Positions 384 through 10,418 of a stretch of 64,000 nucleotides of DNA are shown here, one piece after another; the first letter of the stretch is position 1, and every line of letters begins with the position of its first letter. Source of the DNA: Escherichia coli O127:H6 str. E2348/69 (GTDB lineage Bacteria > Pseudomonadota > Gammaproteobacteria > Enterobacterales > Enterobacteriaceae); the NCBI RefSeq assembly GCF_000026545.1, contig NC_011601.1; one strand, given 5' to 3'. A model generated the notes under the pieces. That model was given only the letters and a program-made list of their open reading frames with translations, had not been told where the DNA came from and did not search any database. Position numbers and translations under genes: made by a program.

Positions 384-2003
384 TTATTTGCTTACTTCTA
401 CCCGCATTTCATTTACCTGTGCAGGAGTAATCTTGTGGCCTTTCTTAAAATAATCGATTACGACATTGGACATGTTATTTCCGGCGCGGACCTGGACATT
501 TTTCCCTTCTTTGAATGCCAGAAAACCATCGCCCCCAAGTGCAAGGAAAGTCGTAGTCGCAACATGGTAAATATTCGTATCAACGATCTCTTCACCATTA
601 ATTTTAAAAGATACAATGCGCTGACCTACTGGTTTCTGCAGGGTATAGCGCATTTCTGCGCCTTTTGACATTTGCAGGATGCCATTGGTAAGCGATGCCC
701 CGTGCTCCAGTAGGTTACGCAGATCCTTACCGCTGAGATCCATTTCAGTAAGTTCATTCTTGAAGGGGAATGTACTGGTAATGTCACCAAAGGTAATCGT
801 GCCTGCATTTATATCAGCACGTAAACTGCCGGAGTTTATCAACGCAATTTGTGCAGTCGGTGCAGCGACAAGCATTGCATCGGTAAACAGGTTGCCAAGT
901 TGCGATGACTCACCGTAGGCACGAGTTAATGCAATCGATGATTCACCGACTGGTTGGCGTACAATATCCGCCAGTTTTTTATTCCAGCCATTGATAACTT
1001 TTTGTGTGGTTGGATCGGGTATCCATTCATCGGCATAAACCGTTTTCAGCTCAAAGCTCTTCACTTTATGAGTACGAGCTGTAGGGTTGACATCAAGGAT
1101 TAATTTACCAATATCGATACCGCCACTGTCAGTCGAAAGGATTAAGGTGTTGCCGACTTTGATTGGTTCTGGCGTTCCGACGTGGGCATGCCCGGTAATC
1201 AGAATATCCAATCCTTTCACCTTGCTTGCGGTTTGAATATCTTTATCCAGCGCACGTCTAACATCTGTATTGCCAATGCTGGACTGACGCGCCGGTACGC
1301 CTTCATGAACCAGCGCCACGGTGAGGTCAACCTTATCACGTAACTCGTCGATATAATGCTGCAAATACTTCACTTCATCACGTGCTTCAATCCCCTGATT
1401 CTTGAGGGTCGCGGAAGATTTATCAAATCGGTTATTATTGTCATTATCGAGTCCCTGGAGAGAGAGCTCCGAGACCGTGTCATTAAATGCAAATACGCCG
1501 TGTAGCCCAACAATACCAATCTTGATGCCATCTTTTTCCAGGATGGTGTAGGGCTTGTTCCAGAAGGGTTTCTCACTCTCTTTATGATAAACATTGCCTA
1601 ATAAAACAGGGAAATTCGCTTTGCTTAATTGTCGGAGGGCATTATCCCAGCCATGGTCAAACTCATGATTACCGATTGATACTGCGTCAAAAGGCATGGT
1701 ATTCATAATATCAATTATTGCTTCGCCCTTTGTCAGGCTACTGATATATGGCCCGGTGAAATAGTCTCCAGCATCAAAATAAAAGGTGGCTTTATTTTTG
1801 GCTTTCTCTTGTTTTACTAACGTGGATATATTGGCAAAGCCACCAATGTCGCGTTTTCCGTCTGCGACATACGGTACTTTATAGGAATCCACATGAGCGT
1901 GAAGATCATTGGTATAAATAATCGTGACATCCTGCGCCATGACTGAGGTCGAAAAAATAGTCAGCAATGTTGCGGCAAGTAAAGTACGCTGCGCTGTTTT
2001 CAT
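384..2003 (-). CDS. periplasmic 5'-nucleotidase / metallophosphoesterase, UshA-CpdB family (paralog 1)
   Basis: ORF 384..2009; signal peptide (MKTAQRTLLAATLLTIFSTSVMA); calcineurin-like metallophosphatase motifs NDLHAH, DAGD, GNHEFD, GHAH. Start set at second ATG (2003) for better RBS spacing. Immediately upstream of and co-oriented with the Tsx-like gene. Confidence 0.8.
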   Translation of the reverse strand: MKTAQRTLLAATLLTIFSTSVMAQDVTIIYTNDLHAHVDSYKVPYVADGKRDIGGFANISTLVKQEKAKNKATFYFDAGDYFTGPYISSLTKGEAIIDIMNTMPFDAVSIGNHEFDHGWDNALRQLSKANFPVLLGNVYHKESEKPFWNKPYTILEKDGIKIGIVGLHGVFAFNDTVSELSLQGLDNDNNNRFDKSSATLKNQGIEARDEVKYLQHYIDELRDKVDLTVALVHEGVPARQSSIGNTDVRRALDKDIQTASKVKGLDILITGHAHVGTPEPIKVGNTLILSTDSGGIDIGKLILDVNPTARTHKVKSFELKTVYADEWIPDPTTQKVINGWNKKLADIVRQPVGESSIALTRAYGESSQLGNLFTDAMLVAAPTAQIALINSGSLRADINAGTITFGDITSTFPFKNELTEMDLSGKDLRNLLEHGASLTNGILQMSKGAEMRYTLQKPVGQRIVSFKINGEEIVDTNIYHVATTTFLALGGDGFLAFKEGKNVQVRAGNNMSNVVIDYFKKGHKITPAQVNEMRVEVSK

Positions 2004-2043: not shown

Positions 2044-3597
2044 TTATTTGGCGACGTCCATGACTCGTTTAGTTAAGTCTGGGGTGACAGGTTTATGATT
2101 TTTGAAATAATCGATGATAGATTCCGCCGAGGTTGTTCCCGGTATCGTCTTCACATTTTTTCCATTCAAAAATGCTTCAAAACCGTCACCACCACTGGCA
2201 CAAAAGGAGTGCGTGGCAATACGATATGTTTGATTATCTTCCACGGGTTTGCCGTTAATGGTGAAAGAGATTAACCGTTGGTTGAGTGGTTTTTTGCTGT
2301 CATAGACAACCGCAACGCTTTTTGAAACCTGTAACACACCGTTAGTTAGATTGGTTGCATGCGTCATCAATGATTTGAGATCGCGGCCCGTCAAATCCAT
2401 CTCGATGAGGTCATTATTAAAGGGGAATGTGCTAATAACATCTCCCAGTGTGATATCGCCTTTAGGAAAATCAGCTCGCATCCCACCGCTATTTTGAAAT
2501 CCGGCAACGGCATCAGGTGTTTTTTCCATCATTGCATCAAGAATAAGGTTGCCGGTAGAAGAGGAACTACCATACTCACGTGTTAAAACTATGGGAGAAT
2601 GGCCGACAACTTCCTGTGTTATTTTGTTAAGCTGTGCACTCCATTTATCAATAGTATTTTGAACGATGGTGTCAGGTTTAAATTGATCTGCAAAGATGGT
2701 GATTAACTCACCATTATAACTATCAATTTTCTTCGTTTTCGGATTGTAATCAAGCACAAGTTTTCCGATGTTGGTGCCGTATGCATCGGTAGATACAATT
2801 AATGTGTTATTAACTTTTATTGGTTGCGGTGTTCCGACATGTGCGTGACCGGTAATTAAGACATCAACACCATTCACTTTTTTAGCTGTCTCAATATCTG
2901 CCTGTAGTAGCCGCTCCACATCTTTACTACCAAAGCTTGATTGACGCGCCGGGACACCTTCGTGAATTAGCAAAACGGTAATGTCGACTTTACCTTTTAA
3001 TTCTGCAAGTGCTTTATTTAAAAATTTAATTTCGTCTCTGGCTTCTACGCCTTCACGTGCTTTTGCCGCGACAGTATCATAGAAAGCGAATGCGCCATGC
3101 AATCCAATCACACCAATCTTTAAACCATCTTTTTCGATAATGGTCCACGGATGATCCCAAACTGGTTTATTCGTATCGGTGTAGTAGATATTTCCCAGCA
3201 GAATGGGGAATTTTGCTTTTGATAACTGAGACACCATATTGGGCACACCGTGATCGAACTCGTGATTACCAACAGACACCGCATCAAAGGGCATAGTGTT
3301 CATGATATCAATAATAGCTTCACCTTTGGTCAGTGTGCTGATATACGGCCCGGTAAAATAGTCGCCTGCATCAAAGAAAAACACATCTTTGCTTTTTTTC
3401 TTCGCTTCATTAACGATGCCTGCAATATTAGCCATACCACCTATAAGTCTGTTCTTATCAACAGCGATGATTTTTGCCGGATTGACATGTGCGTGAATGT
3501 CATTCGTATAATAAATAGTAACGTCCTGAGCTAGAACACTGTGAGAAAATATCACGCCGAATATGACTGATAATGTTGTAAATACAGTTTTCATCAT
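2044..3597 (-). CDS. periplasmic 5'-nucleotidase / metallophosphoesterase, UshA-CpdB family (paralog 2)
   Basis: 517-aa ORF with signal peptide and the same metallophosphatase motifs (NDIHAH, DAGD, GNHEFD, GHAH); more divergent than paralogs 1 and 3. AGGAGG-like RBS just upstream. Confidence 0.8.
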   Translation of the reverse strand: MMKTVFTTLSVIFGVIFSHSVLAQDVTIYYTNDIHAHVNPAKIIAVDKNRLIGGMANIAGIVNEAKKKSKDVFFFDAGDYFTGPYISTLTKGEAIIDIMNTMPFDAVSVGNHEFDHGVPNMVSQLSKAKFPILLGNIYYTDTNKPVWDHPWTIIEKDGLKIGVIGLHGAFAFYDTVAAKAREGVEARDEIKFLNKALAELKGKVDITVLLIHEGVPARQSSFGSKDVERLLQADIETAKKVNGVDVLITGHAHVGTPQPIKVNNTLIVSTDAYGTNIGKLVLDYNPKTKKIDSYNGELITIFADQFKPDTIVQNTIDKWSAQLNKITQEVVGHSPIVLTREYGSSSSTGNLILDAMMEKTPDAVAGFQNSGGMRADFPKGDITLGDVISTFPFNNDLIEMDLTGRDLKSLMTHATNLTNGVLQVSKSVAVVYDSKKPLNQRLISFTINGKPVEDNQTYRIATHSFCASGGDGFEAFLNGKNVKTIPGTTSAESIIDYFKNHKPVTPDLTKRVMDVAK

Positions 3598-3826
3598 CCC
3601 TCCTAGATAGGGGGTGTTACATTTGTTGAATTATTTAAATAAAAGACACATCGTGTCTTATTTTATGTAAGCATAGTTCAGAAAAGTATTGTGTGATCTT
3701 AGTAACAAATAATGTTATTAATTAAACATTGACCATGATTATATTTCACGGTCATACATTTATATATTTAATTAAATGAAAGGTAGTGATCTCTCTTAAT
3801 TTATGGTCGTTTGTCGAGTGTATTGA

Positions 3827-4951
3827 CTAACAAGATGGAGTGAGCGATTCATTGTATTTTAACGCCAGTGAGGTCAGCATTTGCGTTACGCGACCTGCGG
3901 ATAATAACGCGCTTTGGGTAAAGTCGTGTTGGTCTGTCAGCCATGTGATAAAACAACGACTGGTTGCCAGAGAAACATTTGCGCCCCTTTCTAAGCAGGC
4001 TCCCGTGAGTAGGCAGACCATCTTGCAGTTATTCCCCTGCTCCCAGCGCTGCCACTGATTTTGCCACCAACCATGGTATGTCGTTCCCTTAAAATGCCAG
4101 GGCGTATCAGCGTTACTGTCACTGATTTCTTCTTCTACGAACCAAAGTTCACCTTGTTGTTGGCGGAACTGATCTGCCCAGGCTGTAATAATTGCGCCTC
4201 TTAGAAAACATTCGTGTGAAATAATATGCGTTTTGACATCTGGATAGCGGATTTTCAGTATTCTGAAATGCCCGTGTGCCTTGATAACCGGGCGTAGTAT
4301 GGCTCCCTTACCGTTGCGCTTGAGTACAGCACTGCCATACTGAATTTCATCGAACTGGCTCCGGCGCAAGAATTGCGCTTCACGCATATCTACCTTCTGC
4401 ACGATATCGCGATGGTGCATAGTTGGTTCTGTGTTGCCCTTGTAACTGTACCGCAGACTGTCTCCTGTCTGATGTTGCGTATAATTCGTGGAGAGATGAA
4501 GAATGTTGCCACGAGTGGCGTCAAGACTGACTAAAACATACAGTTTTTGTACTGCGCTGGCCCCTTGAAAGGGTATGAACAGTTGAACGGTTTCAATGGC
4601 CTGGGGATGCGTAATTTCTTTCTGATATTTTTTAGGCGTCCAGACTTTTTTGCAGTTACGGCATTGAATGCGTTGCGAACCCTGTGGATTGTGACCATAA
4701 CAAATCATGTCTGTGCCATAACATACCGGGCAGAAATGGCCTTTCTCAATTGCATAAGTAGACAAGTGAACTGACAACCAGTCACGAAATTGTTGCTCGT
4801 CAAACAACGGCGGGTAACTGCCACATGCCCGACAGTGCAGTGCCGGATAACCCAGTTTATAGTCTGGCCAACTGTAATCTTCCGATGAGGCCAATCCCAA
4901 ATTTCGGCAACCGAACGTTTTACAGGCATTAATCGTAAACAGAGTCGACAT
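3827..4951 (-). CDS. hypothetical Cys-rich protein, predicted cytoplasmic, possible zinc-ribbon protein
   Basis: 374-aa ORF with no signal peptide. N-terminal half contains several CxxC pairs (CRACGS, CPVCYG, CRNCKK); C-terminal half is Trp/Gln-rich. I cannot assign a family from sequence alone. Confidence 0.55.
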   Translation of the reverse strand: MSTLFTINACKTFGCRNLGLASSEDYSWPDYKLGYPALHCRACGSYPPLFDEQQFRDWLSVHLSTYAIEKGHFCPVCYGTDMICYGHNPQGSQRIQCRNCKKVWTPKKYQKEITHPQAIETVQLFIPFQGASAVQKLYVLVSLDATRGNILHLSTNYTQHQTGDSLRYSYKGNTEPTMHHRDIVQKVDMREAQFLRRSQFDEIQYGSAVLKRNGKGAILRPVIKAHGHFRILKIRYPDVKTHIISHECFLRGAIITAWADQFRQQQGELWFVEEEISDSNADTPWHFKGTTYHGWWQNQWQRWEQGNNCKMVCLLTGACLERGANVSLATSRCFITWLTDQHDFTQSALLSAGRVTQMLTSLALKYNESLTPSC

Positions 4952-5083
4952 ATATCACCAACGATTTCACAAGGTCGTTGATTTTGTCCGGCAACTATCC
5001 CCTGCGGATGTGATTACTCTCACATAAATAAGTCTTTCAGAACGTAATGTAGCAATCCTTTATCTCACTGAAAGGGATTGTTT

Positions 5084-6637
5084 ATGAAAATTAAAATACT
5101 TGCTGCGGGTATCGCATTAACACTGCCGTTCTGGGCTTGCGCTAAAGATGTCACTATTATTTATACCAACGACCTCCATGCGCATGTAGAACCTTATAAA
5201 GTGCCGTGGATCGCTGACGGTAAACGGGATATTGGCGGCTGGGCAAATATCACTACGCTGGTTAAGCAAGAAAAAGCAAAAAATAAAGCGACATGGTTTT
5301 TTGATGCGGGCGACTATTTTACCGGGCCATATATCAGCAGCCTGACCAAAGGTAAGGCTATTATCGATATTATGAATACTATGCCGTTTGATGCCGTCAC
5401 AATAGGCAACCATGAATTTGACCACGGCTGGGACAACACATTATTACAGTTGAGCCAGGCAAAATTCCCTATTGTGCAGGGCAATATTTTTTATCAGAAC
5501 AGCAGTAAATCATTCTGGGATAAGCCCTATACCATCATCGAAAAAGACGGCGTGAAAATTGGCGTTATAGGTTTGCACGGAGTATTTGCCTTCAATGATA
5601 CGGTATCTGCTGCCACGCGCGTGGGTATTGAAGCGCGCGATGAAATTAAATGGCTACAACGTTATATCGATGAACTCAAAGGCAAGGTTGATTTGACCGT
5701 CGCCCTGATCCACGAAGGTGTTCCAGCCCGCCAGTCCAGTATGGGAGGCACAGATGTGCGTCGCGCGTTGGATAAAGATATTCAGACGGCAAGTCAGGTG
5801 AAAGGGCTGGATATTTTGATCACCGGACATGCACATGTGGGTACGCCGGAACCGATTAAAGTCGGCAATACGCTCATCCTCTCCACTGACAGCGGCGGGA
5901 TTGATGTGGGCAAACTGGTTCTCGACTACAAAGAGAAGCCGCATAATTTTACGGTGAAAAACTTCGAGCTTAAAACCATTTACGCTGACGAGTGGAAGCC
6001 CGATCTGCAAACGAAACAGGTGATCGACGGCTGGAATAAAAAGCTTGATGAAGTGGTGCAACAAACGGTGGCGCAATCGCCGGTTGAATTAAAACGTGCC
6101 TATGGTGAATCGGCTTCCCTCGGGAACCTGGCGGCTGACGCCTTACTGGCAGCAGCGGGTAAAAATACCCAACTGGCTTTAACAAACTCTGGTGGTATCC
6201 GCAATGAGATCCCCGCAGGGGCGATCACGATGGGCGGCGTCATCAGTACCTTCCCGTTCCCCAACGAACTGGTGACGATGGAACTCACGGGTAAACAATT
6301 ACGCAGTCTGATGGAACACGGCGCAAGTTTAAGCAATGGCGTTTTACAGGTATCGAAAGGCCTGGAAATGAAGTACGACAGCAGCAAGCCGGTTGGTCAG
6401 CGGGTAATCACACTGACTCTGAATGGCAAACCCATTGAAGATGCGACGGTTTATCACATTGCTACTCAGAGTTTCCTTGCTGATGGTGGAGATGGTTTTA
6501 CCGCCTTTACCGAAGGGAAAGCGCGTAACACAACGGGCGGTTATTACGTTTATCACGCGGTGGTTGATTACTTCAAAGCGGGCAACACCATTACGGATGA
6601 ACAGCTCAACGGTATGCGCGTGAAGGATATCAAATAA
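5084..6637 (+). CDS. periplasmic 5'-nucleotidase / metallophosphoesterase, UshA-CpdB family (paralog 3)
   Basis: ORF 5078..6637 begins with TTG; the ATG at 5084 with upstream AAGGGA is the likely start ([20 protein letters not shown] signal peptide). Closest paralog of the 384..2003 gene. Confidence 0.8.
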
Positions 6638-7909: not shown

Positions 7910-8183
7910 ATAGTGTGCCTTTTGTGAAAATCACACAGTGTTCACAAATTTTAAACAGAGCACAAAATGCTGCCTCGAAATGAGGGCGGGAAAATAAGGT
8001 TATCAGCCTTGTTTTCGCCTTCATTACTTGAAGGGTACCAGGCTAAAACCTTTTCTTATAAAGCATTCTGCCGAAATCAGACATACTCATAAAGGCTTAA
8101 TTACGATCAATTTGATCTACATCTCTTTAACCAACAATATGTAAGATCTCAACTATCGCATCCGTGGATTAATTCAATTATAA

Positions 8184-10418
<2,235 letters not shown>

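Follow-up and report, generated by a model that had tools for sequence, protein, structure and literature searches.

What controls the genes of the nucleotidase island that lies between metL and metF in some Escherichia coli strains? We addressed this in a 64,000-nucleotide stretch of DNA (the window), whose sequence is identical to that of enteropathogenic E. coli (EPEC) strain E2348/69. The island holds a tsx-like gene, three 5'-nucleotidase genes (nt1, nt2 and nt3) and one gene for a Cys-rich protein, and two of its gaps are candidate control regions: intergenic region 1 (IG1), placed at 3595-3826 by the gene boundaries of the Prokaryotic Genome Annotation Pipeline, and intergenic region 2 (IG2), at 4952-5083. 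An initial annotation, which took the first gap as 3598-3826, had described both as AT-rich divergent promoter regions open to H-NS silencing, with a short inverted repeat upstream of nt3. The main sequence-specific signal in these regions, which that annotation overlooked, is a pair of CRP sites. The best overall explanation, to which we assign a probability of roughly 60%, is that IG2 serves as a CRP-dependent two-way promoter, that IG1 combines a terminator with a promoter, and that the imported segment of the island is coated by H-NS. The genes concerned are as follows.

Minus strand, first in island order: Tsx-like channel gene
384-2003, minus strand: 5'-nucleotidase 1 (nt1)
2044-3594, minus strand: nucleotidase 2 (nt2), start codon at 3594 or 3597
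3827-4951, minus strand: gene of the Cys-rich 'hypothetical/cytoplasmic protein', 374 amino acids
5084-6637, plus strand: nucleotidase 3 (nt3), with metF next

IG2 is truly divergent: the minus-strand Cys-rich gene starts at 4951 and the plus-strand nt3 gene at 5084. IG1 is not, because nt2 and the Cys-rich gene both lie on the minus strand; it sits after the stop codon of the Cys-rich gene and before the start codon of nt2. The term divergent is thus correct for IG2, whose flanking genes read away from each other on opposite strands, but not for IG1. The following elements were located in IG2.

5009-5024: perfect CRP core TGTGATTACTCTCACA (TGTGA-N6-TCACA, 10 of 10 positions), centre at 5016.5
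5045-5050, plus strand: candidate nt3 -10 hexamer TAATGT (family consensus TAAnGT), predicted start around 5057
4981-4986, minus strand: candidate Cys-rich -10 hexamer cAAAAT, predicted start around 4974
5034-5044: nearly invariant block CTTTCAGAACG, in the interval from the CRP site to the nt3 -10 hexamer
4957-4967: invariant block ACCAACGATTT, next to the Cys-rich start codon
4959-4980: imperfect palindrome CAACGATTT / AGGTCGTTG, candidate operator or leader element

A scan of all 64 kb for the CRP core returned 5009-5024 as the only perfect match, and just four sites had at most one mismatch. From the centre of the perfect site it is 65.5 bp to the Cys-rich start codon and 67.5 bp to that of nt3. 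In an alignment of IG2 from 33 Enterobacteriaceae taxa, the region was free of indels between conserved blocks, including the intervals from the CRP site to either -10-like hexamer. TGTGA (5009-5013) was invariant and T-C-A/G-C-A (5020-5024) nearly so, while the 6-bp spacer varied; this combination is the pattern typical of CRP sites. In TAATGT, located 28.5 bp from the CRP centre, the T, A, A and last T were invariant, the conserved block reading G-TAA-n-n-T, and the Shine-Dalgarno region formed a further conserved block. In cAAAAT (read from 4986 to 4981), located 30.5 bp from the centre on the other side, the A at -11 and the T at -7 were invariant, and the hexamer is carried on the minus strand of a conserved block, GGTCGTTGATTTTG. 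At class II promoters the CRP centre lies at -41.5 and the -10 hexamer spans -12 to -7. The centre-to-hexamer distances of 28.5 and 30.5 bp in IG2, and of 29.5 bp in IG1, all fall within 1 bp of this geometry, the starts themselves being predictions: it is from class II spacing of the hexamers that starts around 5057 for nt3 and around 4974 for the Cys-rich gene are predicted. CRP half-sites were also the most shared k-mers upstream of distant members of the Cys-rich family, where ACAAAAT recurred too; the search of these distant intergenic regions for a common operator by k-mer sharing yielded nothing beyond the two.

These features suggest that IG2 is an old and compact two-way promoter region common to nt3 and the Cys-rich gene. 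One cAMP-CRP dimer at 5009-5024 would sit about 41 bp upstream of both predicted starts, in class II position, and would activate nt3, the Cys-rich gene or both once preferred sugars are exhausted, as would fit the scavenging of nucleotides in the periplasm. Two further invariant blocks would probably bind a second, pathway-specific factor. The nucleoside genes tsx, deo, udp and cdd of E. coli K-12 are activated by cAMP-CRP, consistent with this model.

Each of the two intergenic regions has a single CRP-like site even when two mismatches are allowed, further hits being intragenic, and the layout used by CytR (two CRP sites about 52 bp apart, flanking CytR octamers) was seen in neither IG1 nor IG2. 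Inspection by eye of the 33-taxon IG2 alignment gave no conserved TGCAA-type octamers, and reading of the island control sequences gave no good CytR GTTGCATT octamers or DeoR palindrome. In CFT073 the cytR gene (locus L054, 13126-14151), whose product represses the K-12 nucleoside regulon, is located some 8 kb upstream of the island, in the order cytR-priA-rpmE-yiiX-metJ-metB-metL; this proximity is probably a coincidence of core-genome order. The other one-mismatch CRP cores of the window lie at 12883-12898 and 19543-19558 (TGTGAAACAGCTCATA and TGCGACGCGTCTCACA, respectively).

How far IG1 can be read in the same way depends on where it occurs. We surveyed 5,426 complete E. coli genomes for the island. 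A long form is present in 658 of them, comprising B2 strains at 98.5% identity or more (CFT073, sequence type 95 (ST95) strains, clone D i2 and SYNB1934 among them) and IAI39-like strains at about 91-92%. A short form, with the Cys-rich gene and nt3 only, occurs in about 1,170, and the remaining genomes gave no match in the island search. IG1 is confined to the long form, that is, to phylogroup B2 and IAI39-like strains: a search of 53 loci gave no homologue outside it, and where nt2 homologues occur in Enterobacter, in Citrobacter and at a second E. coli locus, their upstream regions share nothing with IG1. Footprinting of IG1 therefore relies on two E. coli variants, which are 90.6% identical in this region. 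Its elements are listed here.

3730-3754, minus strand: terminator-like hairpin TGACCGTG-loop-CATGGTCA, then AUGUUUAAUU; extended fold about 3724-3762
3692-3707: CRP-like site TGTGATCTTAGTAACA (minus-strand reading TGTTACTAAGATCACA, 3707-3692), 9 of 10 positions, centre at 3699.5
3665-3673, minus strand: candidate extended -10 element TGcTTACAT for an nt2-nt1-tsx operon, predicted start around 3658
3630-3659, minus strand: alternative sigma-70-like promoter (AAGACA, 18 nt, AATAAT), predicted start around 3623
3643-3659: palindrome AAGACACGATGTGTCTT, overlapping the alternative promoter
3599-3604, minus strand: nt2 Shine-Dalgarno sequence AGGAGG

The minus-strand fold of 3720-3830 reaches -20.5 kcal/mol (z = -3.2), which none of 200 shuffles equalled, and the hairpin at 3730-3754 carries one compensatory change, from a C-G to a T-A pair, between the B2-type and IAI39-type sequences. 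Its tail, AUGUUUAAUU, is a weak U-tract. The hairpin is probably the terminator of the Cys-rich gene. The CRP-like site at 3692-3707 and its flanks are identical in the IAI39-type IG1, about 91% identical overall, and the candidate -10 element TGcTTACAT, 29.5 bp from the CRP centre as in class II promoters, is conserved there as well. No terminator-like site was found on the minus strand between nt2, nt1 and tsx, and the gaps there are 40 and 76 bp, so that an nt2-nt1-tsx operon driven from IG1 is likely. Which of the candidate elements is the exact promoter is ambiguous from the sequence. The palindrome at 3643-3659 was considered as a conserved element and rejected, being broken in IAI39-type strains. 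In our model, IG1 would first end the Cys-rich transcript by means of the hairpin and then supply the promoter of nt2-nt1-tsx with its CRP site at 3692-3707.

IG1 also contains a degenerate direct repeat (3618-3668 versus 3755-3806) of about 50 nt, the copies lying 137 nt apart; its alignment score is 31, compared with 18.8 +/- 2.6 (maximum 29) in shuffles, and it may be a duplication remnant. Such a repeat, together with the lack of homologues outside the long form, the unrelated sequences upstream of nt2 homologues in other genera and the palindrome that is not conserved, could be taken to mean that IG1 is mostly a recombination scar, in which transcription of nt2-nt1-tsx would come either from read-through out of the Cys-rich gene or from accidental AT-rich promoters, and the match at the CRP-like site would be due to chance; the expected frequency of one-mismatch cores is about 1.9 per 64 kb. 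We consider this improbable. Although 9% of the positions in IG1 differ between the two variants, the CRP-like site and its flanks are identical; the Cys-rich gene is separated from the CRP-like site by a stable hairpin that shows a compensatory change; and the IG1 and IG2 sites, which occupy the two control regions of the island, are among only four cores with at most one mismatch in 64 kb.

The two regions differ in base composition. IG1 (3598-3826) has 28.4% GC against 50.6% for the window, a value equally low in only 0.44% of 229-nt windows; under the RefSeq annotation of the whole window it ranks second lowest of 33 intergenic regions and lowest among those of at least 100 bp, so that its description as markedly AT-rich was borne out. 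For IG2 (132 bp) the same description holds to the extent that its 39.4% GC is below the window value (5th percentile of 132-nt windows, 7th of the 33 intergenic regions), but this is an ordinary level for an E. coli promoter region, since the metF/katG and argE/argC spacers have 38.1% and 37.3%, respectively. The island as a whole has 43.8% GC compared with 51.4% in the rest of the window, with nt2 at 41% and nt3, at 48%, near the genome average. The most AT-rich intergenic region of the window is the 76-bp tsx/nt1 spacer (308-383, 23.7% GC); it holds a sigma-70-like site and may contain an internal promoter.

The long and short forms are 99-100% identical over nt3 and IG2 and just 64-84% identical over the 3' two-thirds of the Cys-rich gene (3827 to about 4626). 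This contrast argues that the left part of the island (tsx, nt1, nt2, IG1 and that portion of the Cys-rich gene) entered by recombination from a diverged lineage; IG2 and nt3 are, judged by the same comparison, the resident allele. The mosaic boundary within the Cys-rich gene is sharp (window 3827-4926 versus locus L002, 5808-6938). The short-form Cys-rich gene extends at its 3' end into metL, with an overlap of 37 bp. The Cys-rich/nt3 pair is found at metL-metF in Citrobacter, Klebsiella, Kluyvera, Phytobacter and Kosakonia, and likewise in Superficieibacter, Pseudocitrobacter and Salmonella enterica arizonae, a synteny by which the pair is an old locus and not a recent acquisition. The label 'horizontally acquired' given to the DNA in the initial annotation therefore fits the imported segment of the long form but not IG2 and nt3, which are syntenic at metL-metF across genera.

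Other arrangements of the locus were also observed. In Enterobacter, Citrobacter sp. wls619 and a second locus of some Escherichia, tsx and the additional nucleotidases follow nt3 on the same strand, in the order nt3-nt2-tsx-nt1 or variants, whereas E2348/69 has the extra genes beyond the Cys-rich gene. Some genomes have two copies of the Cys-rich/nt3 module. In strain AVS0456 (locus L005, 4524-6431) an IS1A insertion splits the short-form Cys-rich gene into two pseudogene pieces while nt3 and IG2 are intact, a natural knockout of the Cys-rich gene.

Is the island bound by H-NS, as had been proposed? Binding of H-NS and StpA was mapped by chromatin immunoprecipitation sequencing (ChIP-seq) in the uropathogenic E. 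coli (UPEC) strain CFT073, cultured in a rich defined medium that contained 0.2% glucose (PMC9765446). The island of CFT073 is 99.5% identical to that of the window (IG2 100%, IG1 98.7%), and the lengths of c4894-c4898 match exactly, which identifies these genes as the same island. All five are listed as H-NS bound genes (PMC9765446, Data set S1 sheet 1E). On a scale from 0 to 1 with a cut-off of 0.07, and as per-gene averages rather than at intergenic resolution, H-NS occupancy was 0.50 for c4894 (tsx-like, 861 nt), 0.26 for c4895 (nt1, 1620 nt), 0.43 for c4896 (nt2, 1551 nt), 0.114 for c4897 (Cys-rich, 1125 nt) and 0.117 for c4898 (nt3, 1554 nt), the tsx-like gene having the highest value in the island; StpA showed the same pattern over these genes (PMC9765446). 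In the hns mutant c4894-c4896 were still bound, and in the hns stpA double mutant c4894 and c4896 were still flagged with anti-StpA serum; overall, 795 of 4,818 CFT073 genes were H-NS-bound (PMC9765446). A literature search returned no H-NS ChIP paper for E2348/69.

Strong occupancy thus coincides with tsx, nt1 and nt2, the imported and AT-rich segment downstream of IG1, while the genes flanking IG2 are barely above the cut-off. The published H-NS data from a related strain, a kind of evidence that the initial annotation had named as a check, support its idea for IG1 and the operon below it; for IG2 the flanking genes exceed the cut-off, but the support is weak. We propose that during glucose-rich growth, with cAMP low, H-NS/StpA would coat the imported AT-rich segment and the operon would be off, and that under carbon limitation CRP at 3692-3707, possibly with other factors, would help open the nt2-nt1-tsx promoter.

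The inverted repeat upstream of nt3 raises a separate possibility for control at the RNA level.

5053-5080, plus strand: inverted repeat CAATCCTTT (5053-5061), 10-nt loop, AAGGGATTG (5072-5080); 9 pairs, one of them G-T

The repeat exists, but an inverted repeat of equal quality arose in 16% of dinucleotide shuffles of the 132-bp IG2, which is within chance. Its 3' arm contains the nt3 Shine-Dalgarno sequence AAGGGA (5072-5077), 7 nt before the ATG; the full hairpin has a folding energy of -13.1 kcal/mol (z = -2.1); and over the 33 taxa 83% of cells are paired, with the inner 5 pairs kept in about 30 of the 33. These features speak for a regulatory hairpin. When folded from the predicted start around 5057, however, only 5 bp are left, at -4.4 kcal/mol and no better than shuffles, and the 5' arm is probably mostly untranscribed given that start. 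Changes on both sides occur at only 2 pairs, in 2 sequences each, which amounts to weak covariation; the 5' arm is missing in two taxa (Silvania and one Citrobacter copy), and the 3' arm would be conserved regardless because it is the ribosome-binding site. A scan of 3400-5300 with the Rfam covariance models, at E-values up to 10, gave nothing relevant. A regulatory role for the repeat is accordingly unlikely; base pairing between the ribosome-binding site and the region of the predicted start might at most tune translation or mRNA stability modestly.

With these results the picture drawn by the initial annotation can be compared with the one proposed here. Its account, in which both regions are divergent promoters of acquired DNA, mainly silenced by H-NS, with the repeat as an operator or regulatory RNA, agrees with the extreme AT-richness of IG1, with the H-NS/StpA binding of all island genes in CFT073 and with the import of the long-form segment. 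It does not accommodate the co-directional genes around IG1, the synteny of IG2 and nt3 across Enterobacteriaceae with nt3 at 48% GC, or the occupancy of 0.11-0.12 on the genes beside IG2, just over 0.07; the strong conservation of the CRP site is not explained by H-NS, and the repeat is within chance and shows little covariation. We regard this account as doubtful as a whole, although its observations were confirmed in part and its interpretation was supported in part. Its expectation of promoters for the flanking genes agrees with our results, both regions carrying CRP sites, -10-like hexamers and Shine-Dalgarno sequences as judged by motif.

Several points weigh against the model of a CRP-dependent IG2 and a terminator-promoter IG1 beneath an H-NS coat. 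The generic sigma-70 promoter scan found 3 sites against 4.6 expected from shuffles, showing no enrichment. One CRP dimer cannot serve two class II RNA polymerases at the same time, so that two-way activation would have to be mutually exclusive or one-sided. Neither CRP nor RNA polymerase explains the blocks ACCAACGATTT and CTTTCAGAACG, whose conservation exceeds what either would need. In IG1, TGcTTACAT lacks an A at -11 and is hence a weak candidate, while a better hexamer, TAAAAT, is changed in IAI39-type strains and has a spacing of 34.5 bp to the CRP centre. The H-NS evidence consists of per-gene averages from another strain under one growth condition and concerns binding, not silencing; the high-affinity H-NS motif TCGATAAATT is not enriched: IG1 has a single hit with 2 mismatches (3798-3807) and IG2 has no hit, and matches of this quality are common (79 in the window versus 59 expected). 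Published transcription-start, CRP-binding or crp/cya expression data for the island genes were not found.

Other literature sources were also searched. The literature on c4894-c4898 and on UPEC crp transcriptomes gave nothing usable. The island is known as 'GR 31 metL..metF' in avian pathogenic E. coli (APEC) strain BEN2908 and other extraintestinal pathogenic E. coli (ExPEC), and nucleoside processing was suggested as its function (PMC12928451, a 2026 paper); this sole paper found to describe the island contains no regulatory data. The supplements of an EPEC study using RNA interaction by ligation and sequencing (RIL-seq) list no island genes; they do report a chimera of the small RNA ArcZ with the 'katG.metF' intergenic region of E2348/69, at 7910-8237 of the window (PMC8550237 supplement).

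What might bind the invariant blocks of IG2? Conservation of CTTTCAGAACG exceeds the need of a promoter spacer, making it a candidate site for a second factor. The palindrome at 4959-4980 was rejected as an RNA hairpin; its left arm is invariant and its right arm variable with no compensatory change, and the fold is no better than shuffles. One candidate for the second factor is the Cys-rich protein itself. It has two N-terminal Cys4 zinc ribbons followed by an RNase-H-like fold of the DDE-transposase/integrase type; no Pfam hit was above threshold, and a match to the zinc ribbon of IS1/IS1595-type elements was sub-threshold. The family is small, with 124 cluster representatives at E-values up to 0.001 among 1.84 billion proteins, and none of the members found bears a functional name, being called 'cytoplasmic protein', 'hypothetical' or 'IS1 family transposase'. 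The two Cys4 ribbons are conserved throughout the family, R197 and H228 are invariant, and H246, E247, R251, Y168, Y205, W296 and W300 are nearly invariant. No conserved acidic residue is present across the family on core strand 1 or after strand 4. Most E. coli genomes have one match to the gene (median 1, highest 2), at a fixed syntenic position. An active DDE transposase was therefore rejected, given the absence of the conserved acidic residue and the single copy at a fixed site.

The Cys-rich gene adjoins nucleotide/nucleoside scavenging genes in eight independent contexts and is divergent from them in seven.

Enterobacteriaceae: 5'-nucleotidase
Vibrio taketomensis: 5'-nucleotidase
Photobacterium: 5'-nucleotidase
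V. scophthalmi: 5'-nucleotidase, upstream on the same strand
JGI genome (P0141): nupC and a nucleoside phosphorylase
Agarivorans: nupC-deoC-deoA-deoB-deoD
Motilimonas: deoD-tal-deoB on one side, tsx and adenosine deaminase on the other
Salmonella Give: porin, AphA-like phosphatase and cyclic-nucleotide phosphodiesterase

CRP half-sites recur in the intergenic regions of these distant contexts. This adjacency is what a dedicated regulator would show, and we tentatively suggest that the Cys-rich protein is one. Taken further, IG2 could be mainly the operator of this regulator, which would bind ACCAACGATTT / GGTCGTTGATTTTG and CTTTCAGAACGTAA and control nt3 and its own gene in response to nucleosides or nucleotides, with CRP as a co-factor. 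The blocks conserved beyond promoter needs favour such an arrangement, as do the divergent pairing with scavenging genes in seven of the eight contexts and adjacency in the eighth, the conservation of both zinc ribbons beside an RNase-H-like first strand that has no conserved acidic residue, and a fold and zinc domain that are both transposase-like; IS1 InsA, a zinc-ribbon repressor that binds its own promoter, provides a precedent. On the other hand, binding of the Cys-rich protein to IG2 is a prediction from sequence, the CAACGA motif was not found in the intergenic regions of distant family members, the right arm of the 4959-4980 palindrome varies without compensation against an invariant left arm, and the protein could be an enzyme instead. 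We view an IG2 that is mainly such an operator as possible, short of an even chance. The same guarded expectation applies to the wider proposal that the Cys-rich protein is a domesticated transposase with a dead RNase-H-like core, which would bind the invariant non-CRP blocks of IG2 and represent an undescribed class of pathway-specific regulator controlling, with CRP, scavenging genes in Enterobacteriaceae, Vibrionaceae and Alteromonadales.

As control regions, a CRP-dependent promoter pair and an H-NS-coated AT-rich junction would be ordinary. The CRP-based model nevertheless offers a concrete regulatory scheme for the nucleotide-scavenging island of B2 pathogens and probiotic-derived strains (E2348/69, CFT073, ST95, SYNB1934), for which no regulatory data on the metL-metF locus were found in the literature. 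Under this model the island should be off in glucose-rich media and on when carbon is limiting, a prediction that bears on growth with host-derived nucleotides. The neighbouring transposase-derived zinc-ribbon protein is the more valuable lead; that it is strictly associated with nucleoside genes in distant Gammaproteobacteria suggests a family of regulators that has so far gone unrecognised.

Comparison with known systems places these elements more precisely. The repeat at 5053-5080 resembles Shine-Dalgarno-sequestering hairpins, such as RNA thermometers and translational operators, in that its 3' arm contains the ribosome-binding site, and differs from them in its lack of an Rfam match, its weak covariation and a 5' arm that straddles the predicted start. 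The imported segment resembles targets of xenogeneic silencing by H-NS/StpA in its low GC content (IG1 28%, nt2 41%, tsx/nt1 spacer 24%) and its binding in CFT073, with residual binding in hns and, for c4894 and c4896, in hns stpA; it differs in the weak occupancy over the Cys-rich gene and nt3 and in having no clear match to the high-affinity motif. The Cys-rich protein shares with IS1 InsA and other transposase-derived binders the sub-threshold IS1/IS1595-type zinc ribbon, and its gene has conserved blocks and an imperfect palindrome between the candidate -10 element and the start codon. Unlike IS1, the gene is present as a single copy at a fixed site without terminal inverted repeats, its product has no conserved acidic residue on strand 1, and it always lies beside nucleoside/nucleotide genes.

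The K-12 nucleoside regulon (tsx, deoCABD, udp, cdd, nupC and nupG) is controlled by CRP with CytR and/or DeoR. The island resembles it in theme, with a Tsx-type channel and nucleotide/nucleoside catabolism, and in the CRP sites at its promoters. It differs in having a single CRP site in each region, compared with the tandem sites about 52 bp apart needed by CytR, in showing no good CytR or DeoR operators, and in having as its partner a transposase-like zinc-ribbon protein instead of a repressor of the LacI or DeoR family. The closest parallel for IG2 is with class II CRP promoters such as galP1 and with divergent pairs that share a CRP site: the TGTGA-N6-TCACA core is perfect, the candidate site likewise takes the place of the -35 element, and a weak -10 element lies 28.5-30.5 bp from its centre at a spacing fixed across taxa. 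IG2 departs from these promoters in the symmetric placement of the site for two opposed promoters, which is unusual and would make the polymerases compete, and in its extra invariant blocks, which suggest that another factor acts there.

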